DNA of 64,000 nucleotides from an uncultured Chitinophaga sp. (GCA_964443415.1 CAYUDC010000001.1:21039-85038), one strand, 5' to 3'. Shown: positions 33,968-52,100, counted from the stretch's first letter. Notes: generated by a model not told the origin, from the sequence alone. Translations and numbers: made by a program.

Positions 33968-34014
33968 ATAACAAAAAATAAGTTATTTTGCAACCCCACT
34001 TAAATCCAGTTTAT

Positions 34015-36549
34015 ATGAAAAAATTTTTACTTGCTTTTGTTTCTTTTGTACTTTTAAGTTTAGCAAGCTTTGGCCAAGCGGTATTGCCTACGGTTTGGAA
34101 TTTTAGTTCACCTGGCATCAGCACACCACCTGCTGGATGGACACTGGGTTTAGGTACCAATGGTAACCTTACTTACGCCTTTGGAATAGGAGATGCCATC
34201 TCTGCTAGATTAGATGCCACAGGTGAATTTATAACCATTCAGATAGCAGATAAACCAGGTGAATTAAGTTATTGGCTAAGCCCTCAAAATGCTGGAAATG
34301 CATGGGGTGGTCAGTTTGATATTCAAGAAAGCCCTAATGGTACCACATGGTCTACCATTCGTTCTATTACTACAAAAGCAACAACCTCTACCAATTTTAC
34401 TGGTGGCAGATACCTAGAGAATTTACAAACTACTACTAGGTTTGTTAGGTTTTATTATACCACCAAACTTCCTGGAGGCTCTGCTGGAGGTGGGAACATG
34501 GCGGTAGATAGCGTAATGATTAAACCAGCCCCAGCGCCACCAACACCAGGTATACAATTAAAGTTGGGATCAAATGTTCTGGTGAATGGAAATACAGTGA
34601 TCATTGGTAACAATGCCAATACGCAATTTAATTTAACAAACACAGGAACTCAACAATCACTCATTATTGATAGCGCGTCTTTATCTGGACTGAATGCATC
34701 CGATTTTAGCCTTCAAAATTTACCAGATACCATTGTTGCAACAAGCAGTAAAAACTTCTTACTAAATTTTACTGCTGGCGCACCAGGTACTCGCAGAGCT
34801 ACATTAACCTTATTTTCTAACGATCCAGATAAACCAACATTTAGAATATCGCTTTATGCCATAGGCGGAAGTTTGGCCTCTGAGCCTACTGCCCAAGCCT
34901 CGGCAATTAACTTTACCTCCATTAAATCTTATGCATTTAATGTTCAACTAGATGCAACTAGCAAACCTGCTGAGAAGTTTTTGGTGCTCAAAAAGCTTGG
35001 GTCAGACATTACCGAAACTCCAGCAGATGGCATTACCTATACAAAAGGAGACTACATTGGCAGTGCTCAGGTTGAGTTTATTTTAGATTCAAGTTTTAAC
35101 TGGACACCTAATTATATCCATGCCCAGAAGAATTATCATTATGCAGTGTTTAGCTTTAATGGTCCTGCTGGATTTGAAAATTATCTTACTTCCAATCCAT
35201 TAAAAGGAAGCGTAACTACAAGTGGTAGAACACCCGGAAATTATTATGCTGGGATTAACCCAGCAGCTACAAGTTTTGTGAGTGATTTAAGTGCTAGGAT
35301 CAACCCTCATGATACAATTTTTTATAGTAACTACATCTCTAGATTAGTAAATCCATGGTTGGCTAGAGACACTAGCGGTGGCAAAAAGGTAGTTACCTGT
35401 GTTTATACTGGGCATCAGTTTGTGTATTCGGAGCCATTTTTATGGGCCAGTGGAAACAATGGTGCTGTGTTAACGCGTGAGCATACTTGGCCACAAAGTT
35501 GGATGCCAAGCAACCAGGGTAATCCCGATTGGCCAAATGCACCGGGCACCAATAGAGAGTTACCAGAATACAATGATTTACATAATTTGTTTCCGGCCCA
35601 TCAAATAAATGCCAATGCCAGACGCAGCAATAATCCATTTCATGAAGTAGTAACGCCTAGTTATACTTCTCCAACTGGTTTTGGCATGTTGGGTGTAGAT
35701 AGTTTTGGCATTACCTCTTATGAGCCAAGGCCAGAACAAAAAGGTGATGTAGCACGAGCCTTGTTTTACATGGCAGTGGCCTACAATGGGGTTGGGTCAA
35801 AATCATGGTCTATTCCAAATCAGCAATCTTTAAATTTATTAAAACAATGGCATCAAATGGATCCACCAGATGATTTTGAAATTGCCAGAAATGAATTTAT
35901 AGCCGTAACGCAAAAGAATCGTAATCCATTTGTTGATTTTCCAGAGTGGGTAGAAAGAATTAATTTCAGAACCATGGCATATGTGCCAGGGGATAGTATA
36001 CCACCTATACCAAAATCAATTAACATTACCTCTCCTAAGGCAACAGATACCTGGAGAAAAGGAATGGCAGCTAGCATATCTTATACCTTTCAGAACATCG
36101 ATTCGGTAAATATATTTTTTAGTTCAGATTCAATGAAAACATGGACCAATATTGCTGGCAATGGCATAGCCCTGTCTGTTGCAAATAATCCTTTTGTATT
36201 TACACCCCTTAGCTATTTTGACCATCCAACAGGCATTGTGATAGTGAAAGACAAGTCTAGTAATACGGCAGATACCTCAAGCTATTTCTTATTAGAAACA
36301 AGTAATGGATTATTAAATACTATTGGTTCGACCCAAATATTAGCTTATCCAAATCCTTTTGAAAGCCTATTGAATGTAAGGATTAATCAAGCCGGTTTAG
36401 TTAATATTTTCTTAATTGATTTACAAGGAAAAGTACTTGTTCAAACCCATGAGCCTAGAGTTGATACGAGAGAAATTCCAAATGGAGTTTACATCTTAAG
36501 GGTTGAAACTGCTCAAGGCCTTTATTTACAGAAAGTTGTAAAAAACTGA
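34015..36549 (+). CDS. Extracellular endonuclease I (EndA/NucM/Vvn family) domain protein with T9SS type-A C-terminal sorting domain
   Basis: Signal peptide MKKFLLAFVSFVLLSLASFGQA. Three Endonuclease-I motifs appear in the conserved order: REHTWPQSW (EndA EWEHVVPAWQ), DLHNLFPAHQINANARRSNNPF (EndA DMHNLQPSVGEVNGDRGNF), and KGDVARALFYMAVAYN (EndA RGAIARTYFYMRDQY). The C-terminal LAYPNPFESLLNVRIN...GVYILRVETAQGLYLQKVVKN is a T9SS CTD. Confidence 0.75.
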   Translation: MKKFLLAFVSFVLLSLASFGQAVLPTVWNFSSPGISTPPAGWTLGLGTNGNLTYAFGIGDAISARLDATGEFITIQIADKPGELSYWLSPQNAGNAWGGQFDIQESPNGTTWSTIRSITTKATTSTNFTGGRYLENLQTTTRFVRFYYTTKLPGGSAGGGNMAVDSVMIKPAPAPPTPGIQLKLGSNVLVNGNTVIIGNNANTQFNLTNTGTQQSLIIDSASLSGLNASDFSLQNLPDTIVATSSKNFLLNFTAGAPGTRRATLTLFSNDPDKPTFRISLYAIGGSLASEPTAQASAINFTSIKSYAFNVQLDATSKPAEKFLVLKKLGSDITETPADGITYTKGDYIGSAQVEFILDSSFNWTPNYIHAQKNYHYAVFSFNGPAGFENYLTSNPLKGSVTTSGRTPGNYYAGINPAATSFVSDLSARINPHDTIFYSNYISRLVNPWLARDTSGGKKVVTCVYTGHQFVYSEPFLWASGNNGAVLTREHTWPQSWMPSNQGNPDWPNAPGTNRELPEYNDLHNLFPAHQINANARRSNNPFHEVVTPSYTSPTGFGMLGVDSFGITSYEPRPEQKGDVARALFYMAVAYNGVGSKSWSIPNQQSLNLLKQWHQMDPPDDFEIARNEFIAVTQKNRNPFVDFPEWVERINFRTMAYVPGDSIPPIPKSINITSPKATDTWRKGMAASISYTFQNIDSVNIFFSSDSMKTWTNIAGNGIALSVANNPFVFTPLSYFDHPTGIVIVKDKSSNTADTSSYFLLETSNGLLNTIGSTQILAYPNPFESLLNVRINQAGLVNIFLIDLQGKVLVQTHEPRVDTREIPNGVYILRVETAQGLYLQKVVKN

Positions 36550-36801
36550 GTCAATAGATTGTGATTTTTTTACAGTTTCAGTTGAATTGAATCAATGTCA
36601 AAACATTAATTTTTTCTTATAAATAGTATTTATTCCGATAAAATTTTCTAAATTTGATTATATGAACTTTGTTTATTCAAAAAAATTATTTTACCAAACT
36701 CTGATAAAACTTGATTATTGGAGGACCATGATTTGGAATGAATAGAAGCTATTTTTAGCCCTATTTCATTTGGTTTTTACATTTAAACAAATCTTTATTT
36801 T

Positions 36802-39800
36802 ATGAAAAAATATATACTTAATCTACGAAGCATGTTAGCTTTGGTCATTCTCCTAGTAGGTCTAGGTAATGACTTGCGCGCGCAGGTTTACCTGCTCGAA
36901 AATTTCGACAGCGCATTTGTGGGTACACCAGGAGCGCCTCCTGGATGGACTCAAACCCGTTTTGATTATTGGGGTGATGGCACTCCAACTGCAATTAATG
37001 TGGCTGGTCCAAAAGACTGGCAGAGAAACCGTTTAATTTCTTCTGGCTTTTGGTCTTCGCAGAGTTTTGGTACTATACCAAGCGCTGCTGTAACAGATTC
37101 AGGAGCTCTTTGGCTCGAAGATTACTATTTTGGAACACAAACCAATATGTTAAGCAGAAGGATTGAGTCGCCAGCTATTAATCTTTCAACAGCTACTTCG
37201 CCTTATTTGCGATTTAACATGTTTTTTGCTCAAACTGCCAATTACACGTATCCAATTATTGTAATGGCATCTAATGATAATGGTGCTACATGGAAATCTA
37301 TCATGCATGTTCAACCTAATGCAGATGTGGTTACTACTTCTACAACTGGCGCAGGTACAATGAATGCTGCTACACCTTGGCAAAAAATAACCATCCGTAT
37401 TCCGGATGCATATAAGGTACCTAATGCTAAGTTTGCCTTTTACAGAAACAATCCATATAGCTTTAACTCAAACCCTTTCATTGATAGTTTAACTATCGAA
37501 GAATTTACACCAACCACTATTACTTCTGCACAAAGTGGTAACTGGTCTGATCCATTAACTTGGGTTGGTGGAATTGTACCTAATGCTAATAATCACGTAG
37601 TAATTGATGCAAATCATACAGTTACTTCAAATGTGAATATTTCTCGTATGCAAAATTTAACCATCAGTGGTGGTGCATCGTTTTTATATTTTTCTTCTTC
37701 TTTAAATACAGTTTCTCAAATTTTTGGAAATTTAACCATCAACTCTACTGGAACATTTAGCCTTGGAACTACTGCTTCATCTACCATTAATAGATGGGTG
37801 TATATTGGTGGAAGTTTAACCAATAATGGCACCTTGAATACCGGTACTGGAACGGGAAGTGTTGTATACATGACAGGTGGGCAATTGAGCACCTTTACTA
37901 ATAATGGTACTATCTCAAACGGCTATATCTCTGGTATGTATTTTGCAAATTCAGGGGGTGTGGAGTTTAACGGTAGTATGACCAGTAACGTGGTAATTAG
38001 AAATTTAACTTTCCTTGTAGACGGTCCTGTAATTCCAAATGGTAAACTAACTTTAGGTATCACCGGAAACGTACATACAATTACACGCGGTAATAATACT
38101 GCGTTCTTTACCCAAAGACCTATTTATCCTCCTTTAGGTACCTCACTTCGTTCGGTAACTTATGGAGGTGGAACGAATGGTAACCCTACAATGGGTATTT
38201 TCTATAAGGACACTATTTTTACTGGATTTGAAACTGATACACTAGCTACTGGAGTTCAATTTATCAGAGGTACATTAACTGTTTTCACTCAGAATCATGT
38301 TAAATTAAGTGCTCCACTTCAAATTGGTGATACTGTTGGAAGAACAACGACACTTTCTGCTACCAATGCTGGTGGATTAACTACATTTAGTCGTGGTATC
38401 TTATTCACCGATGATGTAAATATCTTAACCGTTGGTCCAATTGGAAATGGTTCTTTAGGGGTTGACCCAAGTTTAAATAATTTAAATCCACCCACTACAC
38501 ACGGATCCTATATTGTTGGGCCAGTTAGATTTGTTAGACCATTATCAGGTACTTTAACCTCTACTTTAAGTGTTCCGTTAGGATACGGAAGTCAATACTT
38601 AGCGTTAAGTACACCAAATAATGCTAGACGTTATTTACAACTTACCGCAGGTGGAGGTTGGGCCGGACAGATTATCACTTTCCGCGCTCTAACAAACCCA
38701 TCTGGCGCGGTGAGTGCACCACAAACTTCTTTACTAACCAATCGTTTATACAGAATTGAGTTAGCGCCAGGTCAAAATTTGCCAGCAACCTCATTATTAA
38801 CCGCCATCACTAGAATAGAAGGTGGTAATAGCAATGCAGATGCTTTATTGGGAAACCAAGATCAATTATTCTTAATGCAAAGTACCAGTCCAACTGGACC
38901 TTGGGTGCCAAGAAATGTAGCGGCTGGTGCCGGTGCATTTGTTATTAATACATTATATACACGTCAAACAAGTGCATTATCACCTGGACCAATTAGTGGT
39001 AATGGTGAATATTTTGCATGGGCCTCTTCTGCACCATTAATGAACTTTCAGAATGGAGATGTAACCAGAGAGGTTGCCCCAGTTTCTATTGGTGCCCAAG
39101 ATATGCCAATGTTAAGAGTTAGGGTTAATGTTAACGGTACCATCCCAACTAGGGTAACTAACCTTGATTTTACGCCTGCTGGAACTTCTAACCTTGCAGC
39201 AATTTCATCAGCAAAGGTGTATTATACAGGTACCTCACCGGTATTCAATAATTCTACTCAGTTTGGCTCTACAGTTACCTCTGTAACTGGTGTTACTTCT
39301 GTTACAGGAAACCAAGTATTACAATCTGGCGATAACTATTTCTGGATTGCTTACAATGTTTCAGCTAGTGCAGTCTTGGGTGATAGTTTAAGTGCTAACC
39401 TAAACAGCATTACAGCAGTTGACACAGCAAGAACTTTAGTTACTACACCTGCTACAGGCTTTAGAATTGTAAGTGCTCCAATGACTTTTGTTTCTGCAAC
39501 AGCAGTTCAATTGAATGCAGCAAGAGTAGAGCGTGGCGAACAGGGAGCTGATATCATGCGCATTAATGTAAATATGTCGGCAACTGGTGCTCCGATTCCA
39601 TTGAATAGTTTGCGTTTAAACACCAATGGGTCAGGTGCCACTACCAACATCACACAAGCTCAAGTTTATTATACAGGTAACTCTACCACATTTAACAAAA
39701 ATCAATTAGTAGGAACATTTAATAGCCCAAGTGGAGCATTCATCATAAATGGAACCCAAAATCTATCTAATGGCGATAACTATTTTTGGGTAGCGTATTC

Positions 39801-42800
39801 TGTATCTGCTACAGCAATCTTAGATGATTCTGTTGATGTTGAGTGTGATTCGATTTCTATAAGTGGAGTAAACAGACCTGTAAGTCCAATAGCTCCAGCT
39901 GGAAATAGGCTCATCCGTGCGCCATATTGTAATAGCGCTGCAACTACTACTGGTGATGAGGAGATTTGGAATGTTACTTTTGGTTCAATTAACAATACCT
40001 CAAACTGTACAACCTTAGCCCCAGGGCCTGGTTCGGTGAATAGCATGTATTCAAATTATACCACTTCTATTGCACCTCCTAGTATTCCTGCTGGTTTGCC
40101 TATACCAATTAGTGTTAATGCTGCAAGTTGTGGTGGTAATTATCCTTCAACCTTAAGGGTATATATCGATTATAACCAAAACGGTGTTTTTGATTTACCT
40201 GGTGAATTAGCTTATTCTAATAATTCATTTACTTCTAGCACTGCAGGTACAACCATTTTAACAGGAAACATTACTGTTCCATGTAGTGCTTTACCTGGAA
40301 ACACAAGAATGAGGGTTGTATTAGATGAAACTTCTGGTGCTCCGGCTTGTGGTACTTATACTTGGGGAGAAACAGAAGATTACACCATTAATATTGTTGC
40401 AGGAGCTTCAACTTATACAGCTTCAAATGCTATTCAATTTACAGGTACAACTTCTGCCGGATCATCAGATGTTAGGGTATTGAGAGTGCCAATTAAGGTA
40501 TCTTCTTCACCTTGTAATCCTGGTGTTATCACACAATTAAGATTTAATACTGCTGGTTCTACCAGTGCTGCAGATATCGTTTCTGCTAAATTATATAAAA
40601 CTGGAAGCTCTAACATATTTAGTATTGCTAATCTAGTTGGTACTGTAGCCGCTCCAAGTGGTCAGTTTTCATTCACCGTAGCAGATACCGCTGTAAATGA
40701 TACCAACAATTATTGGTTAGCCTATGATGTAAGTGCTACTGCTACCGCATCAAATGTTTTAGATGCTAGATTTGATAGCGCCGAAGTATTTGGTGCTTGG
40801 TACACCCCAATTAATGGAAATCCTACAGGAAATTTAGTAATTACTGTTCCTATGGCTTATATAGGTTCAAGTGTTATTCATACAGACTTAGGAATGGTAG
40901 AAAGACCTTCTGTTAATAATAGAATGTTGCGTGCGATGGTAATCATGGGTTCTACTGGTGCACCAGTATCAGTTACTCAGTTTAGCTTAGATGCCAATGG
41001 CGGTGGTGATGACACCTCAAATATTGCTAACGTAAAAGTATTCTACACCGGAAGCAGCGCAAATTTTGCTTCAACCAACCAGTTTGGTTCAACTTTCGTT
41101 CAAACTACACCTACTGGTAATAAATATGGTGCCTTTAATATTAATGGTATCCTTAACCTGGCCAATGACACCAACTACTTCTGGGTAACTTATGATATTA
41201 AGTCTACCGCAATATTAGGTGACTCAGTTGACTTAGAAATGTCAGGCATTACCATTGCGGGTGTTAATAGAACTCCATCCACCACGGCTCCGGCGGGCAA
41301 TAGAAAAATTCGTGCTCAATATTGCGCCAGTGGTGCTACCTCAACTTTTGATGAGGAAATTTGGAATGTTACAGTTGGTTCGTTAAATAACACTTCTACT
41401 TGCGCTACCACAGCTCCAGGCCCTGGTTCTGTAAACAGCCAATACTCAAATTATTCTGGATTTGTTGCTGCTCCAAATTTGGCTGCAGGATTGCCAATTC
41501 CATTTAGCGTAAATGCAGCAAGTTGTAATGGTAATTACACTTCAATGTTGGGTATTTACATAGACTATAACCAAAATGGAATATTTGACTTGCCAGGTGA
41601 ACTTGCTTATGCTAGTGGTACATTTACCTCAAGTACAGCCGGAACACAAATAATTACTGGTAATATTACTGTACCATGTACTGCAATGCCTGGTATAACC
41701 AGAATGCGTGTGGTATTAAATGAAACTACCGGTGGTGTTGCACCATGTGGTACATTTGCTTGGGGTGAAACCGAAGATTATGATGTAAACATTGTATCTG
41801 GCGCTCCATCGTTCCGCAGTGTTAGTGTGAACCAAAATACAGGAACTACTGCTGCCTCAGCTACCGATGTTAGGATTTTAAGAATTCCTGTGGTTATGAC
41901 ATCATCGCCTTGTAACCCAGCTATTATAGATGGATTCTCTTTCAATACTGCTGGTTCTACTGCTGCTGCTGATATTGCAAATGCAAAATTATATGTAACA
42001 AGAAATTCTGGTGTATTTAACAATACCAACTTGCTTGGAACAGCAACTAGCCCTTCAGGCCAATTCACATTTACTGTGGCTGATACCTTAAATAATGATA
42101 CCAATTTCTATTGGTTAACCTATGACGTAAGTGCAACTGCTACCAATAGCAATGTGTTAGATGCTAGATTAGATAGTATCAACTTGTTAGGAAGCTGGCG
42201 TGTGCCTGCAAATGGAAACCCTGCTGGAAACGTAGTGATTGCCACTCCTATGACTTATTTAGGAAGTGCTGCTATACATCCAGAACAAGGTATCGTAGAA
42301 ACAGGAGCAGTTAATCAAAGAATGTTACGTGTAATGGTTAGAATGAGTTCTATTGGCGCTCCTGTTGCATTGACCCAATTTAACTTAAATGCAAATGGAG
42401 GTGGAGATGATACTTCAAACATTGCCAATGTAAAAGTATTTGCAACAGGCAATAGCCCAGTATTCTCAGCCGCTAACCAGTTTGGTACCACTTTCGTTCA
42501 AACTACACCTACCGGTAATAAGTGGGGTGCATTTAACATCAATGGTACCATTAACTTAAATAATGATACCAACTACTTCTGGGTAACTTATAATATTAAA
42601 TCTACTGCCATCATTGGCGACTCTGTAGATGCAGAAATTACAGGTTTAACCATTGCAGGTGTTTCTCAAACTCCTACCAATACTGCTCCAGCGGGCAGCA
42701 GAAGAATTAGAGGTCCTTATTGCGCTAGTGCCGCTCAGTTTGCTGGAGATGGAGAAATTTGGAATGTAACAGTTGGTTCGTTAAATAACACTTCTAACTG

Positions 42801-45800
42801 TACTGTGGCTGCAACAGGCCCTGGTTCTACTTTAAGTTTATATTCTAACTATACTCAATCTATCAATGCACCAAATTTAGTGGCTGGTGTTTCGATACCG
42901 TTCTCTGTCCATACTTCAACTTGTGGTGGTAATTACAATGGTGTATTGGGTATTTGGATAGATTTGAACCAAGACGGTGACTTTACTGATGCGGGTGAAA
43001 CCGTTCATATGACTCCAACTTTCTTATACGGGACAACCGTATTCCGCACAGGTAATTTTGTGATTCCTTGTACTGCCACTCCTGGTACTACAGTGATGCG
43101 TGTGATTTTAAATGAGACTACTGCTTCTCCAATTTCGCCTTGTGGTTCTTATTTCTATGGAGAAACAGAGGATTATATCGTAAACATTGTTAACGCTGCT
43201 CCTGTATTTAATGCAGTTTCAGTAATACAACAAACTGGTACAACAAGCGCTGGTGCTACAGATGTTCCTGTATTACGTGTTCCTATCAGAGTAACTTCTT
43301 CTGCTTGTACTCCTGGAACAGTAAATGAATTTAGATTTAACACGGCTGGTACAACTACTGCTGCTAACATTGTTACGGCTAAACTTTACAAAACAGGTAA
43401 TACAGGTGTATTCTCAAACACTAACCTGGTAGCTAGTGTTACTTCACCAAGTGGCGCATTTAGCTTTACTGTAACAGATACCTTAATTAATGATACCAAT
43501 AACTATTGGTTAGCCTACGATGTTGCTACAACGTCTGCAAACAACAATACGTTAGATGCAACTTTTGACAGTGCCAATGTTTATGGTAATTGGGTAGTTC
43601 CTGCTGTGAGCAATCCTACTGGTAATGTGGTTATCTCTACTCCAATGACCTTTGTAGGAAGCGATGTAAGCCACCCAGATGCGGGTATGGTTGAAACTGG
43701 TTCTGTAAATAACAGAATGTTAAGAATTAGGGTTCGCATGAGTTCTACTGGTGCACCTGTTTCATTAACTCAGTTAAACTTAAACACAAATGGTGGAGGT
43801 AATGATACTTCTAACATTAATAACTTGAAAGTATTCTATACTGGAACGAGTGCAAATTTTGCCACTACCAACCAGTATGGATCAACTTTTGTGCAAACTA
43901 CACCAACAGGTGCAAGTTGGGGAGCCTTTAACATTAATGGCTTGGTTTCACTTGCCAACGATACCAATTATTTCTGGGTTACTTACGACATCAAAGGAAC
44001 TGCCATCGTAGGCGATTCGGTTGATGCAGAATGTACAGGAATGACTATTGGCGGTGTTTCTCAAACACCTTCGAATACAGCGCCTGCTGGATCAAGAAAA
44101 ATTAGAGTGCCTTATTGTACAAGTGCAGCCCAATTTGCGGGTGATGGCGAAATCCTAAATGTAACTGTTGGTACTTTAAATAACACCTCTAATTGTACTA
44201 CTGTTGCTCCTGGTGCAGGTTCAGCTTTGAGTTTATATTCTAACTTTACTTCTTCGGTTACCGCACCAATTATGAATGCAGGTGATTTAGTTACATACGA
44301 TATTCATACAGCAACTTGTAATGGAAACTACAATGGTGTTATGGGTATTTGGATAGACTTTAACCAAGATGGTGACTTTACGGATGCTGGTGAAACTGTT
44401 GTGATGACTCAATCATTCCTTTATGGTAATGGTGTGTATCAAACAGGTGCCTTCTATATTCCATTGAATGCTACTACTGGTAGAACTAGAATGCGTGTCA
44501 TCTTAAATGAAACTACAGCTTCTCCAATTTCTCCTTGCGGTACCTACTTCTATGGAGAGACAGAAGACTATACCATTGAGATTTTACCTGCACCAAATAC
44601 AACCTACCTATGGAACCAAACAAGTGGTGGTAGCTTAATTTTACCTACCAACTGGACTCCATCAAGGTTAAAAGCCAACCTTTCAGATAAGTTAATTATC
44701 AATACTGGTAATACAGGTGCATTTACAGGTGCTGGTAGCCAAATTGTTCGTGCCATTGAATTAGGTGCAAATACGGTTGCTAACGTTGCTGGCAATGCTG
44801 CCATTGTTGTAGTTACCGATTCATTGGTATTTGGTAACAACGCTAGAATTGTTACTAACTCAAATACATTGGTATTGGGTAGAGATACTTCAAGTGTAGG
44901 TGCATTGCAAGTAGGAACTGCTGCTGGTATAGCTGGTAATTTCACTCGTTGGTTTAATAGTACTTTGAATCCAATTAGTTTCCCATTAATTACAAGTGCT
45001 GGATTAAGTAGAGTAATGGAAGTTAACTATACCACTGCTCCTACCACAATCGGTTCGTTGACAGCTTCATTTGTGCCAACAGCGCCAGGTAATAATGGCT
45101 TACCACTTTATGATAGTACTGCCTTCTTTACTATTAATAGAGCCGGTATCGATGGATACTGGTCATTGTTGCCAAGCAATGGTACTGCAGCTGGTACTTA
45201 TAATGTAAGTTTAAATGCGACAGGTTTTACAGGTGTATCTAACTACTTACAATTGGTTGCTATTAGAAGAAATACTGGTACTTCACCTTGGACATCTAAT
45301 GGTGTTCATGTAACTGCAACTGGTTCTAATGCGGCTCCTATTGTAAATCGTAACAATGTTAATCAATATGGTGATTTTGGTATCGGTGGAGATACTGCTG
45401 TTAATCCGTTACCAGTTGAAATGTTATCATTTACTGCAAAAGCGATCAATGGAGATGCATACTTAAATTGGTCAACTAGCATGGAGATCAATAATAAGGG
45501 CTTCTTCGTAGAAAAATCTATCGATGGTGTTAACTTTAAAGATATCAACTTTATAGCAGGACATGGAAATTCTAAAGCTGTTAGAAGCTATCATTTAGAA
45601 GATCAAAATGCCTTTGCATTAACTTCAACTGTTTATTACAGATTAAGACAAGTTGATTTTGATGGCACAACTAGCTATTCAAAAGTTGTGAGTCTTTCAG
45701 AAAATGACCTAGTATCGGATGCGGTTACCATGTTCCCTAATCCGTTCTCTGAATCAATTGGAATTAGCTTTGTTTCATCGGTGAGCGGTGAGGCGGTTGT

Positions 45801-45969
45801 TGAGGTAATTGATATCCAAGGTAGATTAATTGCTAATAGCACATTAACCATTCAACAAGGTGCTCAGTACATTCCTTTAAACAATGCAGATAAATTAAAC
45901 TCTGGAGTTTATATGGTTCGTGTGAACTTTAATGGTATCACACAAACATTCAAAATTCAAAAGATGTAA
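36802..45969 (+). CDS. Giant (3055 aa) T9SS-secreted cell-surface repeat protein with four GEVED-like Cys-rich modules
   Basis: Signal peptide ALVILLVGLGNDLRAQ. Choice-of-anchor-J-like N-terminus (ENFDSAFVGTPGAPPGWT). A 4x ~1.4 kb tandem super-repeat, each unit ending in W/YGETEDY. A pre-CTD module shared with the downstream gene. T9SS CTD (MFPNPFSESIGISF...GVYMVRVNFNGITQTFKIQKM). Confidence 0.85.
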   Translation: MKKYILNLRSMLALVILLVGLGNDLRAQVYLLENFDSAFVGTPGAPPGWTQTRFDYWGDGTPTAINVAGPKDWQRNRLISSGFWSSQSFGTIPSAAVTDSGALWLEDYYFGTQTNMLSRRIESPAINLSTATSPYLRFNMFFAQTANYTYPIIVMASNDNGATWKSIMHVQPNADVVTTSTTGAGTMNAATPWQKITIRIPDAYKVPNAKFAFYRNNPYSFNSNPFIDSLTIEEFTPTTITSAQSGNWSDPLTWVGGIVPNANNHVVIDANHTVTSNVNISRMQNLTISGGASFLYFSSSLNTVSQIFGNLTINSTGTFSLGTTASSTINRWVYIGGSLTNNGTLNTGTGTGSVVYMTGGQLSTFTNNGTISNGYISGMYFANSGGVEFNGSMTSNVVIRNLTFLVDGPVIPNGKLTLGITGNVHTITRGNNTAFFTQRPIYPPLGTSLRSVTYGGGTNGNPTMGIFYKDTIFTGFETDTLATGVQFIRGTLTVFTQNHVKLSAPLQIGDTVGRTTTLSATNAGGLTTFSRGILFTDDVNILTVGPIGNGSLGVDPSLNNLNPPTTHGSYIVGPVRFVRPLSGTLTSTLSVPLGYGSQYLALSTPNNARRYLQLTAGGGWAGQIITFRALTNPSGAVSAPQTSLLTNRLYRIELAPGQNLPATSLLTAITRIEGGNSNADALLGNQDQLFLMQSTSPTGPWVPRNVAAGAGAFVINTLYTRQTSALSPGPISGNGEYFAWASSAPLMNFQNGDVTREVAPVSIGAQDMPMLRVRVNVNGTIPTRVTNLDFTPAGTSNLAAISSAKVYYTGTSPVFNNSTQFGSTVTSVTGVTSVTGNQVLQSGDNYFWIAYNVSASAVLGDSLSANLNSITAVDTARTLVTTPATGFRIVSAPMTFVSATAVQLNAARVERGEQGADIMRINVNMSATGAPIPLNSLRLNTNGSGATTNITQAQVYYTGNSTTFNKNQLVGTFNSPSGAFIINGTQNLSNGDNYFWVAYSVSATAILDDSVDVECDSISISGVNRPVSPIAPAGNRLIRAPYCNSAATTTGDEEIWNVTFGSINNTSNCTTLAPGPGSVNSMYSNYTTSIAPPSIPAGLPIPISVNAASCGGNYPSTLRVYIDYNQNGVFDLPGELAYSNNSFTSSTAGTTILTGNITVPCSALPGNTRMRVVLDETSGAPACGTYTWGETEDYTINIVAGASTYTASNAIQFTGTTSAGSSDVRVLRVPIKVSSSPCNPGVITQLRFNTAGSTSAADIVSAKLYKTGSSNIFSIANLVGTVAAPSGQFSFTVADTAVNDTNNYWLAYDVSATATASNVLDARFDSAEVFGAWYTPINGNPTGNLVITVPMAYIGSSVIHTDLGMVERPSVNNRMLRAMVIMGSTGAPVSVTQFSLDANGGGDDTSNIANVKVFYTGSSANFASTNQFGSTFVQTTPTGNKYGAFNINGILNLANDTNYFWVTYDIKSTAILGDSVDLEMSGITIAGVNRTPSTTAPAGNRKIRAQYCASGATSTFDEEIWNVTVGSLNNTSTCATTAPGPGSVNSQYSNYSGFVAAPNLAAGLPIPFSVNAASCNGNYTSMLGIYIDYNQNGIFDLPGELAYASGTFTSSTAGTQIITGNITVPCTAMPGITRMRVVLNETTGGVAPCGTFAWGETEDYDVNIVSGAPSFRSVSVNQNTGTTAASATDVRILRIPVVMTSSPCNPAIIDGFSFNTAGSTAAADIANAKLYVTRNSGVFNNTNLLGTATSPSGQFTFTVADTLNNDTNFYWLTYDVSATATNSNVLDARLDSINLLGSWRVPANGNPAGNVVIATPMTYLGSAAIHPEQGIVETGAVNQRMLRVMVRMSSIGAPVALTQFNLNANGGGDDTSNIANVKVFATGNSPVFSAANQFGTTFVQTTPTGNKWGAFNINGTINLNNDTNYFWVTYNIKSTAIIGDSVDAEITGLTIAGVSQTPTNTAPAGSRRIRGPYCASAAQFAGDGEIWNVTVGSLNNTSNCTVAATGPGSTLSLYSNYTQSINAPNLVAGVSIPFSVHTSTCGGNYNGVLGIWIDLNQDGDFTDAGETVHMTPTFLYGTTVFRTGNFVIPCTATPGTTVMRVILNETTASPISPCGSYFYGETEDYIVNIVNAAPVFNAVSVIQQTGTTSAGATDVPVLRVPIRVTSSACTPGTVNEFRFNTAGTTTAANIVTAKLYKTGNTGVFSNTNLVASVTSPSGAFSFTVTDTLINDTNNYWLAYDVATTSANNNTLDATFDSANVYGNWVVPAVSNPTGNVVISTPMTFVGSDVSHPDAGMVETGSVNNRMLRIRVRMSSTGAPVSLTQLNLNTNGGGNDTSNINNLKVFYTGTSANFATTNQYGSTFVQTTPTGASWGAFNINGLVSLANDTNYFWVTYDIKGTAIVGDSVDAECTGMTIGGVSQTPSNTAPAGSRKIRVPYCTSAAQFAGDGEILNVTVGTLNNTSNCTTVAPGAGSALSLYSNFTSSVTAPIMNAGDLVTYDIHTATCNGNYNGVMGIWIDFNQDGDFTDAGETVVMTQSFLYGNGVYQTGAFYIPLNATTGRTRMRVILNETTASPISPCGTYFYGETEDYTIEILPAPNTTYLWNQTSGGSLILPTNWTPSRLKANLSDKLIINTGNTGAFTGAGSQIVRAIELGANTVANVAGNAAIVVVTDSLVFGNNARIVTNSNTLVLGRDTSSVGALQVGTAAGIAGNFTRWFNSTLNPISFPLITSAGLSRVMEVNYTTAPTTIGSLTASFVPTAPGNNGLPLYDSTAFFTINRAGIDGYWSLLPSNGTAAGTYNVSLNATGFTGVSNYLQLVAIRRNTGTSPWTSNGVHVTATGSNAAPIVNRNNVNQYGDFGIGGDTAVNPLPVEMLSFTAKAINGDAYLNWSTSMEINNKGFFVEKSIDGVNFKDINFIAGHGNSKAVRSYHLEDQNAFALTSTVYYRLRQVDFDGTTSYSKVVSLSENDLVSDAVTMFPNPFSESIGISFVSSVSGEAVVEVIDIQGRLIANSTLTIQQGAQYIPLNNADKLNSGVYMVRVNFNGITQTFKIQKM
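38990..44590 (+). repeat. Four tandem ~1.40 kb (about 466 aa) in-frame super-repeats inside the 3055-aa gene
   Basis: The GETEDY codons recur at 40366, 41764, 43159 and 44554 (spacings 1398, 1395, 1395 nt). Each unit holds two ~150-aa subrepeats (...NRMLRxMVxMxSTGAPV...YYTG...NYFWV.Y) plus one ~150-aa six-Cys module (CxSAA...EIWNVTVGSLNNTSNC...SCxGNY...PC...PCGT(Y/F)xxGETEDY). The copies have diverged, roughly 75-95% identical over conserved stretches. Confidence 0.8.
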
Positions 45970-45996
45970 TTTTTCAAGCTTTTATTTAGATAGAAA

Positions 45997-46026
45997 GGCG
46001 GCTGATGATTCAGCCGCCTTTTTTTT
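45997..46026 (+). terminator. Rho-independent terminator downstream of the 3055-aa gene
   Basis: Stem GGCGGCTGA, loop TGAT, stem TCAGCCGCC. A run of 8 T follows, about 28 nt after the stop codon. Confidence 0.7.
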
Positions 46027-46166
46027 GTTTTTTGCAAATTTTTAATCCACACATTATCAACTATTAATCATTACATTAATTTCCTCTTAAAAAAATTGAC
46101 AATAGATTATTGCGTGAATGTTTACAAATATTTTAAATTACGCATCAAACCAAATCCTAATAATAT

Positions 46167-49100
46167 ATGTTATACATCTCCTCTAAACGATTTCGAGAAT
46201 TTTGGGTCAAACCAATATTTTCGATTGTTGCCATTTTACTAATGGCATCTGGGCTTTATGCTCAAACAAACATAGCCCCTTTGGCTACTGCTTCCGCGTC
46301 TTCCTGTATGACCGGACCGTGTAGTGCATTTAATGATTTAAACTATGGTACTTGTGGGACGCAATTGGTGTGGATTTCTACATCTGGCCCTCCTGCCGGT
46401 ACAGAATGGTTAGAGTTTACCTGGCCAACTACGCAAGTGTTTGACAAAATTACCATTCACCATGCCCAAACCACTGGCCGCTTTTTGGCGGGTGGAACTA
46501 TTCAAGTTTGGAATGGTACTTCCTACGTTAATCACCACACTTTTTCTGGATTGAACCAAGCGAATTGTGTGAATGATGTAAGTTTCTTACCGGTAGCCTC
46601 AACAAGACTACGTATTACTGCTTTTGTAATGGGTACAGGACAGAACTCTAACCCAAACTTTCGTGAAATTGAAGTTTGGAGAGGTTCTCTTTCAGGCAAT
46701 GATGTTGGTATAGCAAGTATTGATTCAGTTGGAACCGTTTGTTCAACAACTGCAATTCCTGTCTATGCCACTATTCAAAATTTTGGTACCAACCAAGTTA
46801 CCTCTGCTAATGTTTTATGGAGTGTAAATGGTGCGTTGCAATCAGTTATCCCTTTTACTGGCACTTTGGATACTGCTGGTGGAGCAGGTTCCAACAAAGC
46901 TACAGTTCTACTTGGCACTTATGGTTTCTCGCCTACCAATTCTGTTATTAAAGCTTGGACTAGTCAACCTAATAGTACAGCTGATACCATAAGAGTTAAT
47001 GATACTGCTTCAGTAACTAAATCAATTGCACTTGCTTCTGGTACTTATACTATTGGTGGAACTGCTCCAGACTTTGTATCGTTTACTGCTGCTAGAAATG
47101 CTTTATATGCTCGCGGTATTTGTGGCCCTGTTACTTTTATAGTAGCCAATGGTACCTACAATGAGCAAGTAGATTTTACTGGTCATATTTCTGGCGCTTC
47201 TGATGTTAATACCATTACTTTTAGAGGTACTAGCAGAGCAGGTACTATTCTTAATTTTGCTTCTACAAATACGGCTCAAAGGCATACGCTTCTGTTTGCC
47301 TCTAATGCGCGTTTTATCACCTTTAGAGACATGACCATTCGTGGTAATGGTAATTTTGCTGGTGATTTTGCCTTTACTTTAATTATTAACAGTGGTGCCA
47401 GAAGCATTAGAGTGGCCAATTGTGATATCTTAGTTGCAGGTGCTAACTCATTATCTGGTACAACAAATTATATCCCTGTGTTACTTGGTGGTACTTCTTC
47501 TTCTTATTCTTCTGGTAGCAGAGTGGATAGCGTAGAAATTGATACTTGTTTAATTAGCCGTGGGTATTTTGGTGTAGTGAATTATGGTGTTTCTGGTAAC
47601 CTAGGTTTGAACGTAAAGTTTAGAGGATGTTTATTTAAAGAAAACTATTACTATGGATATTACGGTGTTCAAAATGGTAACTTAACTTTAGAGAATAACG
47701 ATTTCCAATTACAAACTGCTACCACTGGTATTACTCCAATTTATGTTTCTACTGCTACTGCACCTACCAATTTTCATCACAGAATTGTAGGTAATAAAAT
47801 GAGAGAAATAGGGTCTTATGCTATGGCACTCTTTACAGTTACAAATCCATCAACTGGTAAAGGTTTAATTGCAAACAATGCCATTGGTGGTGCGCAAATT
47901 TCTACAACTGGTTATGGAATTTATATGAGTGGCTGTAGCAACTTTATGATGTTGCATAACTCTGTAAATTTAAATATTGCAGGATCTACCAATGCAATTT
48001 ATGCAGGTATATATATTACCAGTGGTTCTGGAAATAGTATCATTAATAATAACCTTGCTAGAACTGCTTCTGGTGCTGGTATGCCTATGTATTTAGTGAC
48101 AAGCGCTGTAAGTGATACTTGCGATTACAATAACTATTTTAAGGTAGATACTGTGAGCGGTTTAATTTATAAAGGAGCTACCTATATGCCTGCTACCTTT
48201 AGGGGCACAATGGCTAAGGATAGCTTCTCTTTAAATAACCCTCCTGGATTCTTAAGTGCTACCAATTTAAATATCAATGTGCCTTGTAATAAAGGTATGG
48301 CTTTACCTGTGGTACCAACTGATATCAATGGTTTAGCTCGTTCTATTACTGCTCCAAATATGGGTGCTTACGAAATGTTAGCGCTTAATAATAACATTGG
48401 TATTGAAAGAATTCTTGCACCAACGCCAACTACTTTCACCATTGGAAGTAATGATGTTTGGGCTTTAATTAGAAATACTGGTATTAATACAGTAAGTAGT
48501 TTTGATGTTTCATACACCAATAATGGCGGTACTCCAGTGACACAATCGGTTACTGCTACATTGGCCGCTTGTGATACCATTAGTGTATTGTTTACAGGTA
48601 CCAATCAAGTAACTTTAGGTTCAAGCAATAAATTAAAAGTTTATACCAGCGGACCTAATGCAAGTTTAGATTCATTCCCTGCTAATGACACCTTGGTGGC
48701 TGATTTATATGCTCCGTTAAGTGGTAACTATACTATCGGTGGCAGCACTGCAAATTTTGCCAACTTTACTGCCGCTGTTAATGCCCTTAAAGGTGCTGGT
48801 ATTGCTGGGCATGTTACTTTTACCGTTAATCCTGGTACTTATAATGAATTTGTGAACTTAGATGGAACAATTTTAGGTTTACATGATACTGCAAGGGTAT
48901 TGTTCAGTGGTGTGGATAAAAACACTGTGATAATAGAAGCTAACAGAGGTTCTGCACCAGTGGTGGGTATTTTTGGACATCGTTATATCACCTTTAGGGA
49001 TATGACCATTAGAAATACTTCTCCTTCAGGTACAGGTTTTGCCATTGTAGGAAATACTACCAACAATGCTGGTACTGGTTGTGGAATCATTAATTGTATT

Positions 49101-52100
49101 GTTGATATGCCAAATGTAACCACAGCTACAGCTTATGGAATATTGGCAACAGGTACTGCCTCTGGTTATGGAATTGGAGCTATGCGCGCTGATTCAATTA
49201 CCATTGATTCAAATGTGGTAAACAAATCTTTCTATGCTATAACTGTTTATGGTGCTACCAATGCATTGTATAACCGTTTTATTAGAATTAGAAATAATAC
49301 CTGTAACAATATTTACTATATGGGTGCATATGTTGCTTATAACTACAATGCCATTGATTTTATAGGTAACAAGTTTACCATGGATCCTACCTATGGTTAT
49401 TATGGGGTTTATTATTATGCTAACCAAAATGCGAGTGCAACTGTGCCACATAGATTCCACGGTAATACTGTTATTAATCACGGTGGTTATGGCGCCTTCT
49501 TGTATTTCCCAACCACTAACAGTGCAAACTCGGCTATCACAGAAGTGTATAATAACATGATTGTATCTGGCCCAACCTATAACTTTGTGTATGGTATCTA
49601 TGTGCAAGATCAATCTTCTTCTAGATCAAGAATTATTCATAATACCTCTGTAAATAGATATCCTACAGGTACGGTGAGTTATGCTGCTATCGGAACAACT
49701 GGTTCTACTCAGGTGGTGGTTAAAAATAATATTTGTGTAAATTTAGCTGGTTCGGCTGCTCCTGCCTACTTTGCTACCAACCCTGCTGCTGGTAATGTTA
49801 ACCATAATATTTATTGGAATACTGCTGGTACTGCATTGGTTTTTAGAAACGGAACGTATTGGAACGCCTCTAACTTTAAAACTGCTACAAATGGTGGTGA
49901 CTCTTCTCACAACATTAACCCAGATTTAGTGAGTGCCACAGACTTACATACTACTAGTGCTTGTTTGCCTAAAGGTGCTGATTTCTCAGCATTTTTAACC
50001 ACAGACATTGATGGCGATGTAAGAACCATTCCAAGTATGATTGGTGCTGATGAGGTGGTGGGTATGAGCAACGACCTTGAAGTTGTTTCTATTCTTGCTC
50101 CTTCTATTCCTGTAAGTTTAGGTGCACAAGACCTAAAAGTGTTGGTTAAAAATAGAGGTACTAATACCGTTACTAGCTTTAACGTTGCTTATAGTTTAAA
50201 TAATGGTACTCCAGTGGTATTAGCCTACAGTGGGTCTGGTTTGTCTTCTTGTCAATCTGATACCATTACCTTTACGGGTACTAACCAAATTACCATTGGA
50301 ACTGGTGTGAACAATGTAAAAGTTTATACTTATGCTCCAAATGCCAGTGCAGATAGCAATCCTATTAATGATACTTTAGGAGCCTCATTGGCAGCGCCGC
50401 TTTCTGGTAACTATATTGTGGGTGCGGCTCCTTCTGACTTCCCTTCTTTAACAGCTGCATTGTTGGCTGCCAAAACAAGAGGAATCGCAGGTAGAACTAC
50501 CTTCTTAATGAAATCAGGTGTATATACTGGTAACTATGCTGTTGAGCCAATGCCTGGAACTTCTGCTACCAACACAGTAAATATTGAATCATTAACTGGT
50601 AACCGTGACGATGTAAGATTTGAATTCTCAAATGATGCTTCAAATCTTCAGGTATTTAACATCTCTGCAAGTTTTGTAAACTTTAGAAATGTAACCATTC
50701 GTCAAACCAATGGTAACCTAACCTCTACCAATACTATTGTGAGATTTAATGGCGCACCTACCAACGACTCTTTAGTAAATTGTGTGGTTTGGGGACCTAT
50801 TTTTGGAGTAGATGGAAATAGCACAGCTAGTTATTCTCTGTATGCTACAGGTATCAATACCAATAGATTGATTTTTGAAAACAACTATTTCAAAGGTTCT
50901 TTCTATGGAGCTTATTTCTTTGGAAATAATGCAAACTACTCTGTTAAAAATACTGAATTTATTGGTAATACTTTTGACAGTGTGACCTATGGTGCTTTAT
51001 ATTACTTATACTATACTACTGGTACAAAAGTTATCAATAATATCTTTAATCATAGGGTAATTGGTGGTACTTACACCACTGGCTACCAGTATTGGTATTA
51101 TAATGACTCAGGTTATGTATGTACTAATAACAAAGTTCAAACCTTTGGTGGTAAGAGTTTATATTGGTACAACTATTATAGTAGAAATGCTGCTTCAAAC
51201 CCTTCTATCATTGCCAACAATGATGTAAATGGTGCTTCAGCCTTTATTTATTGGGCATTGTTTGGTAGTGTTACCAATAACCAAAACTTCTACCATAATA
51301 CAGTGCATTCTGGTTCAAATTATACTTACTTTAATGCAACTGGAAATAGCAACGTAAAAGTGTTTAACAACATTTTTGCTGCTTCGGGTACTTATTCATT
51401 GTATTGGTCAGGTGCACCTGCAGGTATTGCTCAAATTAATACCGATTACAACTTGTATTTTACAACAGGTTCAACTACTCCAATTTATGCAACAGCTGCA
51501 AGAACTCTGGCAGCCTTTAAAGGAGCCTACCCTACGTATGATAGAAACTCGGTGCAAAATAGAGCTCCGTTCATGAGCAACGCTAACCTTATGCCAAATG
51601 CAAATGATACAAATGTATGGTTAATCAATGGCAGAGGTGTTCATAACACTATATCTCCTATAGATTTTGTTGGTGTAACCAGACCAGCTTCTGTATTAAA
51701 TGGTGCGCCAGATTTAGGTGCCTACGAAGTAACACCTTCTATTAGCACTTTGGCTCCTTTAGCAACTGTTGTTCCTGCCATTCCAGTAGCGGGTGGTACT
51801 CAACATTTCTTAGTAGGTCAAGACTCTGTAGCTAAAATCACTTGGGATCCATTTACTTCTTTACCAACTAATGTTTCATTGAGATATTATACTGGCGAAC
51901 AGCCAAATACTCAAGGTGCTACTGGTAAAGCCATCAATGCTTATTATGATGTGAAGTTAACAGGCTCTGGCTTGTTGTATAATTTAGACTTGCATTATAA
52001 AAATACCCTACGTGGAAATATTGCTGCTCAAGGCGATTTAAGAATGGCTAACTATCCTGTGGGTTCTTGGAATTACTTAGGTGCAAGTGTAGTGGATAGT

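Follow-up and report, generated by a model that had tools for sequence, protein, structure and literature searches.

A giant type IX secretion cargo protein of an uncultured Chitinophaga sp. with four old three-domain supermodules and a putative disulfide clasp at their junctions

The 64,000-nucleotide stretch of DNA from an uncultured Chitinophaga sp. (GCA_964443415.1, CAYUDC010000001.1:21039-85038; hereafter the window) carries a gene for a giant secreted surface protein of 3055 amino acids (plus strand, 36802-45969 including the stop codon), as judged from the list of open reading frames, the translation, and the Pfam and NCBIfam domain content. The protein contains four in-frame copies of a unit of about 1.4 kb, each consisting of two BNR_assoc_N beta-sandwiches of the carbohydrate-binding module (CBM) family CBM93 followed by one GEVED beta-sandwich of about 160 residues, an arrangement that is termed here the BBG supermodule. 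The protein is probably a surface-attached fibril or adhesin-like protein that leaves the cell through the type IX secretion system (T9SS); its shaft of four BBG supermodules, stabilised by disulfides within and between domains, would project a G8/beta-helix N-terminus. Somewhat less firmly, we favour the wider view that BBG is a mobile and previously undescribed three-domain supermodule of T9SS fibrils, whose copies are chained by a disulfide clasp between Cys4 of GEVED and the CBM93 domain that follows; such a shaft would be a Gram-negative counterpart of the stalks stabilised by isopeptide and ester bonds, and its length would come in quanta of 1 to 12 copies.

The reading frame is unbroken across 9.2 kb, and the motif GETEDY occurs in it four times (residues 1189, 1655, 2120, and 2585; nucleotides 40366, 41764, 43159, and 44554), with spacings of 1398, 1395, and 1395 nucleotides, each a multiple of three. 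Cutting the protein 11 residues past the start of each GETEDY yields four units of 465 or 466 residues (39004-44586) that can be aligned end to end:

39004-40398, plus strand: unit 1, residues 735-1199, with BNR_assoc_N domain a (742-892), BNR_assoc_N domain b (893-1036), and the GEVED module (1037-1199); from the alignment, the hidden Markov model (HMM) parse, and Pfam
40399-41796, plus strand: unit 2, residues 1200-1665, with domain a (1200-1349), domain b (1350-1501), and the GEVED module (1502-1665); from the alignment and the HMM parse
41797-43191, plus strand: unit 3, residues 1666-2130, with domain a (1666-1815), domain b (1816-1967), and the GEVED module (1968-2130); from the alignment and the HMM parse
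43192-44586, plus strand: unit 4, residues 2131-2595, with domain a (2131-2280), domain b (2281-2432), and the GEVED module (2433-2595), in which the junction cysteine is replaced by leucine

An independent repeat search returned several repeat families with the identical spacing of 1395 or 1398 nucleotides; Tandem Repeats Finder was silent, which reflects its longest period of 500 and is no evidence against the repeats. The original prediction, drawn from the sequence alone, had described an in-frame array with a period of about 1.4 kb, and the single reading frame, the spacings, the repeat search, and the full-length alignment all agree with it. The divergence had been underestimated, however: conserved stretches were said to be 75-95% identical, while whole units share 52-68% of their nucleotides and 44-68% of their residues, the best 60-nucleotide window between units reaches 88%, and the median 60-nucleotide windows lie at 52-70%. 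The synonymous divergence (dS) between units ranges from 1.2 to saturated or undefined, and the ratio of nonsynonymous to synonymous divergence (dN/dS) is 0.15-0.25. Saturated synonymous sites and a low dN/dS show that the copies are old and that purifying selection acts on them, and the saturation also speaks against recent gene conversion. The same architecture recurs in more than 20 independently assembled orthologues, so the description of the array as old and selectively maintained, and neither recently duplicated nor artefactual, holds. The possibility that unit 3 arose from units 2 and 4 by a simple unequal crossover was rejected, as the identities of the individual domains do not point to a clean chimera; only its GEVED module clearly groups with unit 4 (71% identity to the unit 4 module and 58% to the unit 2 module).

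The domains that make up the units belong to known families. Pfam reports GEVED (PF20009) at 247.1 bits against a cut-off of 24.4, in four stretches, the best of which covers residues 1118-1197 and profile positions 2-78 of 78, and BNR_assoc_N (PF14873) at 222.8 bits against a cut-off of 25, in eight stretches; the module at the end of each unit, described earlier as GEVED-like, is thus a true GEVED domain. HMMs built from the units divide each of them into two BNR_assoc_N domains of about 150 residues and a cysteine-bearing module of about 163 residues, designated module G, so that the array is a row of twelve beta-sandwich domains. The Pfam GEVED model, with its 78 positions, spans just the C-terminal half of module G. 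AlphaFold2, given an alignment of 48 sequences, folds module G of unit 2 into one compact beta-sandwich with a predicted local distance difference test (pLDDT) score of 93.8 and a predicted template modelling (pTM) score of 0.89, and in this prediction the GEVED-containing module of about 160 residues makes up one domain that is twice as long as the Pfam model. The whole of unit 2 is predicted as three all-beta domains (pLDDT 90.1). In the alignment of 48 GEVED modules, Gly162, Glu163, Glu165, Asp166, and Tyr167 are invariant or nearly so. The most conserved elements across these diverse copies are a D-x-N-x-x-G...E loop (WIDxNQDGxFxDAGE) and the acidic GETEDY strand, which together resemble a calcium site of the DxDxDG/EF-hand type and form a possible candidate for one (in unit 2, residues 1494-1665, nucleotides 41281-41796).

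A Foldseek search of the PDB with the unit model matches the N-terminal CBMs of Bacteroidales sialidases (4bbw, 6mrx, 4fj6, 8gn6, 8feb, and 8t24; probability 1.00) at a sequence identity of about 8-12%. Otherwise, the three-domain unit mostly matches generic rows of beta-sandwiches, among them integrin legs, complement MG domains, a mastigoneme, and pilins, and the integrin-leg and complement types were given no functional weight for this reason. Module G matches domain IV of Endo-HSalpha (PDB 9x1i; E 1.8e-6, TMq 0.62, 21% identity), and the remaining matches are generic immunoglobulin-like sandwiches, for example RhoGDI and CARDB. The entire unit found no match among PDB chains by sequence; only the profile of 48 GEVED modules reached 9x1i (E 6.6e-4). 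PF14873 corresponds to the CAZy family CBM93, and its member in Tannerella forsythia NanH has been shown to bind sialoglycans (PMC9472817). GEVED was defined from the NR3 region of the Streptococcus gordonii fibrillar adhesins CshA and CshB and is associated with stalks, its role being unknown (Barringer et al. 2023, PMC10952558). Endo-HSalpha domain IV, described in 2026 as novel, lies directly before the T9SS sorting domain and has been proposed from docking to take part in N-glycan recognition; the paper does not mention calcium (PMC12961652).

All 24 cysteines of the protein fall inside the array (residues 1015-2579). Module G contains five conserved cysteines, namely C1 (PYC), C2 (NTSxC), C3 (SCxGNY), C4 ((V/I)PC), and C5 (PCG), except in unit 4, which has four and carries leucine in place of C4. 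Units 2-4 additionally bear a cysteine about 39 residues into their first BNR_assoc_N domain, in the motif SS(P/A)C. The module had been described as having six cysteines with a fixed pattern; their positions are indeed conserved across units, while the number is five, and four in unit 4. The "sixth" cysteine of each 465-residue period lies outside the module, being the SS(P/A)C cysteine in units 2-4 and an "EC" cysteine in units 1 and 4, so that unit 4 has both.

In an alignment of 82 units, taken from the window protein and 24 homologues (25 proteins in all), every unit has C1 and C5 (82/82), and C2 and C3 are either both kept or both lost, C3 sometimes being displaced by four columns. The cysteine of the first BNR domain is found in each of the 57 non-first units and in no first unit (0 of 25); likewise, C4 is found in each of the 57 non-last units and in no last unit (0 of 25). 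The two cysteines therefore exist exactly where a module G precedes another unit. The GEVED module of unit 3, although of the "last-unit type", bears C4, as its internal position requires. The same rule was examined more widely through a unit-profile search of 1.84 billion representative proteins, which gave 20,368 matches at E<=1e-3 and 4,113 at E<=1e-30; among the 150 best, 143 new proteins were parsed after removal of those already in the family set. Of the junctions at which a module G is followed by a BNR domain, 146 carry both cysteines, 39 carry neither, and 2 carry a single one (Fisher p 6e-38); one of these two discordant junctions involves a truncated domain. Where no BNR domain follows, C4 is missing from 369 of 379 modules G. 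Among proteins outside the family, P0034 and P0047 show a G-BNR junction from which both cysteines are missing. Stand-alone modules G lack C4.

The simplest explanation of this junction-specific co-occurrence is a disulfide between C4 of each module G and the first-domain cysteine of the next unit, with intradomain pairs C1-C5 and C2-C3. The window protein would then contain three such clasps, located by the cysteine positions and the co-occurrence:

40282-40515, plus strand: putative disulfide at junction 1/2, Cys1161 (40282-40284, GEVED of unit 1) with Cys1238 (40513-40515, first domain of unit 2)
41677-41913, plus strand: putative disulfide at junction 2/3, Cys1626 (41677-41679) with Cys1704 (41911-41913)
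43069-43308, plus strand: putative disulfide at junction 3/4, Cys2090 (43069-43071) with Cys2169 (43306-43308)

The earlier suggestion of disulfide stabilisation thus gains support from cysteine covariation, and the pairing differs from the one implied, comprising two pairs within the module and one between units.

Several observations weigh against a clasped fibril. Ten stand-alone GEVED modules bear C4 without a BNR domain after them, and some BNR domains carry the cysteine without a GEVED module before them (P0036 and P0038), so the pairing is not universal. Cys1015 (39844-39846, "VEC") and Cys2411 (44032-44034, "AEC"), in the second BNR domains of units 1 and 4, have no identified partner; they are lineage-specific and not conserved in orthologues, the closest of which has an odd total of 23 cysteines, and for these reasons they are probably free or buried thiols. 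The pTM of the model of the entire unit 2 is 0.68, by which the relative orientation of its three domains is only moderately defined. Finally, Pfam recognises no adhesive tip domain above cut-off, and the N-terminal 709 residues contain only the G8/beta-helix-like region.

The regions on either side of the array indicate how the protein would reach and occupy the cell surface:

36802-36882, plus strand: predicted Sec signal peptide, residues 1-27, MKKYILNLRSMLALVILLVGLGNDLRA followed by Q, read by eye from the translation
36883-39003, plus strand: N-terminal non-repeat region, residues 28-734, a putative distal "head" with a weak Reelin-subrepeat-B-like beta-sandwich, G8 (residues 253-327), and a beta-helix-like region
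44587-45729, plus strand: post-array region, residues 2596-2976, including a domain of about 110 residues before the sorting domain that is common to the neighbouring giant gene
45730-45966, plus strand: T9SS type A C-terminal sorting domain, residues 2977-3055 (PF18962, TIGR04183)

The signal peptide is predicted from a basic n-region, a hydrophobic core, and a c-region ending in LRA before Q, an A-Q junction of the kind that signal peptidase I of Bacteroidota typically cleaves. Predicted cleavage between LRA and Q (36802-36885) would leave glutamine at the mature N-terminus, which fits the reported tendency of Bacteroidota secreted proteins to begin with glutamine or pyroglutamate. When the N-terminal 709 residues were scanned as a segment, G8 (PF10162) scored 23.9 bits against a cut-off of 22.9; the Pfam match to Reelin_subrepeat-B in this region falls under its cut-off, and no sequence relatives of the region were found in the PDB. 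No Pfam family scores above cut-off in the post-array region (residues 2596-2976). The sorting domain is recognised by both PF18962 (38.5 bits, cut-off 27) and the NCBIfam model TIGR04183 (38.8 bits, cut-off 23), over residues 2977-3051/3052. Taken together, the predicted signal peptide, the G8/beta-helix N-terminus, and the T9SS type A sorting domain make a surface fibril or adhesin-like protein of a freshwater Bacteroidota bacterium, carried by the T9SS, the best-supported reading of this sequence, and the neighbouring genes on both sides, which also encode T9SS cargo, were counted in its favour.

According to this reading, Sec would carry the protein over the inner membrane, and folding and disulfide formation would take place in the periplasm. 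Each complete GEVED module would acquire two internal disulfides, C1-C5 and C2-C3, and C4 would bond with the first-domain cysteine of the next supermodule, so that every supermodule junction is covalently clasped. The C-terminal sorting domain would then direct export through the T9SS and attachment at the cell surface, an anchoring role that is established T9SS biology (review PMC11611037). With the C-terminus attached at the surface, the N-terminal G8/beta-helix region would be projected from the cell. The array is probably a mechanically and proteolytically robust spacer, and it may in addition offer a multivalent, low-affinity glycan-binding surface, as two thirds of its domains come from a carbohydrate-binding-module family.

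The alternative that survives best, although we consider it clearly the less likely account, makes glycan binding the function itself: the array would be a multivalent lectin or CBM array and no spacer, in which polysaccharide or cell glycans are bound by the eight CBM93-type domains and perhaps also by the four GEVED domains. The ligands envisaged are algal or cyanobacterial exopolymer and glycans on other cells, and the role would be adhesion or the targeting of an N-terminal beta-helix enzyme to its substrate. The N-terminal G8/beta-helix-like region fits this proposal, beta-helix-type folds being common among polysaccharide-active enzymes. It also draws on the sialoglycan-binding CBM93 member of T. 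forsythia NanH (PMC9472817), on the Foldseek matches to sialidase N-terminal CBMs, among them 8t24, which has a sugar bound in its CBM, and on the N-glycan recognition proposed for Endo-HSalpha domain IV, the only solved relative of the GEVED module (PMC12961652). The identity to the sialidase CBMs is, however, as low as noted above, published work does not define which residues of CBM93 bind the ligand ("we have no evidence at present"), and docking is the sole basis of the Endo-HSalpha proposal. Across all 3055 residues of the protein, no match to a glycoside hydrolase or lyase family appeared, and a sialidase/BNR catalytic family is absent from its Pfam matches at E values up to 1. Glycan binding is, moreover, compatible with a stalk and does not exclude it.

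The evolution of copy number bears on a second alternative. Orthologues carry three or four units, and on trees of the non-repeat flanks the clade of the window protein has four, its sister clade three, and the other clades four, three, and three; as the two states are interspersed, units have been gained or lost several times, each time as a whole. First units all fall together in a single clade of the unit tree, and later units group partly by position, among close relatives, and partly by lineage, so that the history of the units, as read from these trees, is one of birth and death. In the 77%-identical orthologues P0001 and P0002, the four units correspond one to one by position (identities along the diagonal 0.72, 0.83, 0.88, and 0.82), and the nearest relatives, at 76-77% identity, all have four. 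Tandem BBG triplets among the 143 representatives number one in 23 proteins, two in 13, three in 22, four in 8, five in 4, eight in 1, and twelve in 1. The longest shafts reach 36 domains: P0055 (6052 residues) has 12 consecutive BBG supermodules, and P0057 (4223 residues) has 8.

The original prediction had named repeat number as a plausible site of phase or length variation, and the corresponding proposal is a contingency locus, at which frequent change of unit number by recombination or slippage would vary a surface antigen. The range of copy numbers, three or four in orthologues and 1-12 in the wider family, and the in-frame gain and loss of whole units accord with it. The units are nevertheless only 52-68% identical in nucleotides, and their longest shared exact runs, of 13-28 nucleotides, are too short for efficient homologous recombination; dS is saturated, P0001 and P0002 have kept the same four units, and the differences in copy number fall on deep branches, between deeply diverged orthologues. 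As far as these comparisons reach, copy number varies solely on long evolutionary timescales, and an active variation mechanism is very improbable. That the periodicity reflects an assembly artefact, a mis-joined or collapsed or expanded repeat, has a negligible probability: the metagenome-assembled genome (MAG) contigs L005 and L008 (another assembly, short) do break inside the orthologous array, and such genes are hard to assemble, but the divergence of the units suffices for unambiguous assembly, the frame is intact throughout, independent assemblies show the same architecture, and position-specific features are conserved, the first unit being without the partner cysteine and the last without the junction cysteine. 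Both the contingency locus and the artefact are essentially excluded.

Glycosylation sequons were also considered as a defining feature of the array, in which threonine, asparagine, and serine make up 32% of residues, and were rejected in that role. Composition alone predicts 38 N-x-S/T sites, and 48 are present (z 1.8); for D[ST][AILVMT], 7.5 are predicted and 13 are present (z 2.2), at three to four per unit. The excess is marginal, with z about 2, and lies within motifs conserved between units. The description of the subrepeats as packed with such triplets was thus overstated, as the counts are mostly compositional. Three D-S/T-x positions are common to units 2-4, and unit 1 keeps just DSV; the shared positions sit in motifs conserved between units, for example GDSVD and LDAxxDS. 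D(S/T)(A/I/L/V/M/T) is the O-glycosylation motif of Bacteroidota (PMC8550257), and O-glycosylation of the array is possible.

The gene lies among others of similar kind:

33988-36549, plus strand: upstream T9SS cargo gene, 853 residues, with an Endonuclease_1 domain, a weak F5/8-type-C match, and a sorting domain
45992-46033, plus strand: intrinsic-terminator-like hairpin (14-bp stem with 7 G-C pairs, 45992-46023) and T run, 23 nucleotides past the stop codon, by consensus match only
46167-54476, plus strand: downstream T9SS cargo gene, 2769 residues, with Beta_helix and a sorting domain

Three secreted proteins are thus encoded consecutively on one strand, and a secreted nuclease beside two surface fibrils could relate to the handling of extracellular DNA or biofilm. 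The sequence TAAATTTG at 36650-36657 fits the Bacteroidota -7 promoter consensus TAnnTTTG as a match of sequence. The downstream protein shares with the giant protein only the last 187 residues or so, covering the pre-sorting and sorting domains (41% identity, E 2e-41, BLASTP). Its gene has a diverged internal repeat of its own, with a spacing of 1677 nucleotides (48469-48539 against 50146-50216, 70% identity), and the closest MAG locus contains a matching downstream open frame of at least 3482 codons. The rest of the window is ordinary chromosome, with genes for UvrA, histidine kinases, and a methyltransferase, and the GC content is 33-41%. The closest genome locus belongs to a pond MAG, "Bacteroidetes bacterium H1_MAG_00011" (77% identity), in which upstream synteny is conserved, and other relatives are found in Bacteroidota/Bacteroidia MAGs. 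Clear orthologues also occur on CALRIT020000003.1 and CALRXU020000003.1, contigs of MAGs titled "Vulcanococcus limneticus", a picocyanobacterium, and "Chitinophaga pinensis", respectively; at least the cyanobacterial contig looks mis-binned or mislabelled.

All domains of the protein are known Pfam families, and the gene is of an ordinary, already auto-annotated type, its homologues being listed as "GEVED domain-containing", "BNR-repeat neuraminidase N-terminal domain-containing", or "T9SS type A sorting domain-containing" proteins. In full-text literature searches on GEVED, PF14873, and CBM93, the BBG supermodule and its spread, the recognition that Pfam GEVED is half of a larger domain, and the junction cysteine pair appear to be undescribed. 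Environmental Bacteroidota have giant T9SS cargo proteins in abundance, hardly any of which have been characterised. Among the 150 best-scoring representative proteins, the number of BBG supermodules in tandem ranges from 1 to 12. If the clasp is real, it would provide a simple sequence rule for spotting rigid, disulfide-chained stalks in Gram-negative surface proteins, and with its confirmation PF20009 could be extended, with no major concept changed.

The protein resembles several known systems in part. Like CshA, it is a long, repetitive surface protein with GEVED, of which there are four matches here, and with a G-E-x-E-D-Y motif shortly before the next domain; in CshA, however, GEVED occurs once, beneath the CshA_NR2 tip domain, whereas here it repeats within the shaft, carries five cysteines per module, and is preceded in every case by BNR_assoc_N, Pfam reporting no domain of the CshA_NR2 type, and the anchor is a T9SS sorting domain in place of LPxTG. 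The eight PF14873 matches and the Foldseek fold match recall the CBM93 sialidases (T. forsythia NanH, Bacteroides thetaiotaomicron BTSA 4bbw, and Porphyromonas gingivalis PG_0352); in contrast to these enzymes of glycoside hydrolase family 33 (GH33), the present protein has no catalytic domain, and its eight copies follow a fixed pattern of a pair plus GEVED. Endo-HSalpha domain IV (9x1i), from another T9SS cargo protein, is the only solved structure that specifically matches the whole module of about 160 residues; it is a single accessory domain of an enzyme of glycoside hydrolase family 85 (GH85), lacks the junction cysteine context, and was not linked to GEVED by its authors.

A further likeness is to the fibrillar adhesins (Monzon et al., PMC8286594, PMC9210967), which are long secreted proteins with a C-terminal anchor signal and many tandem beta-sandwiches, and in which a covalently stabilised stalk is a recurrent theme; the corresponding features here are the twelve tandem beta-sandwich domains and the T9SS sorting domain. 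The differences lie in the three-domain heteromeric repeat, the putative inter-domain disulfide, export and anchoring by the T9SS, and the lack of a recognised tip domain. A super-repeat of several domains is also seen in staphylococcal SasG, in which E and G5 domains alternate. In Gram-positive stalks, covalent stabilisation is provided by isopeptide, ester, and thioester bonds, and in the BBG array the corresponding role would fall to the disulfide between GEVED and the CBM93-type domain of the next supermodule.

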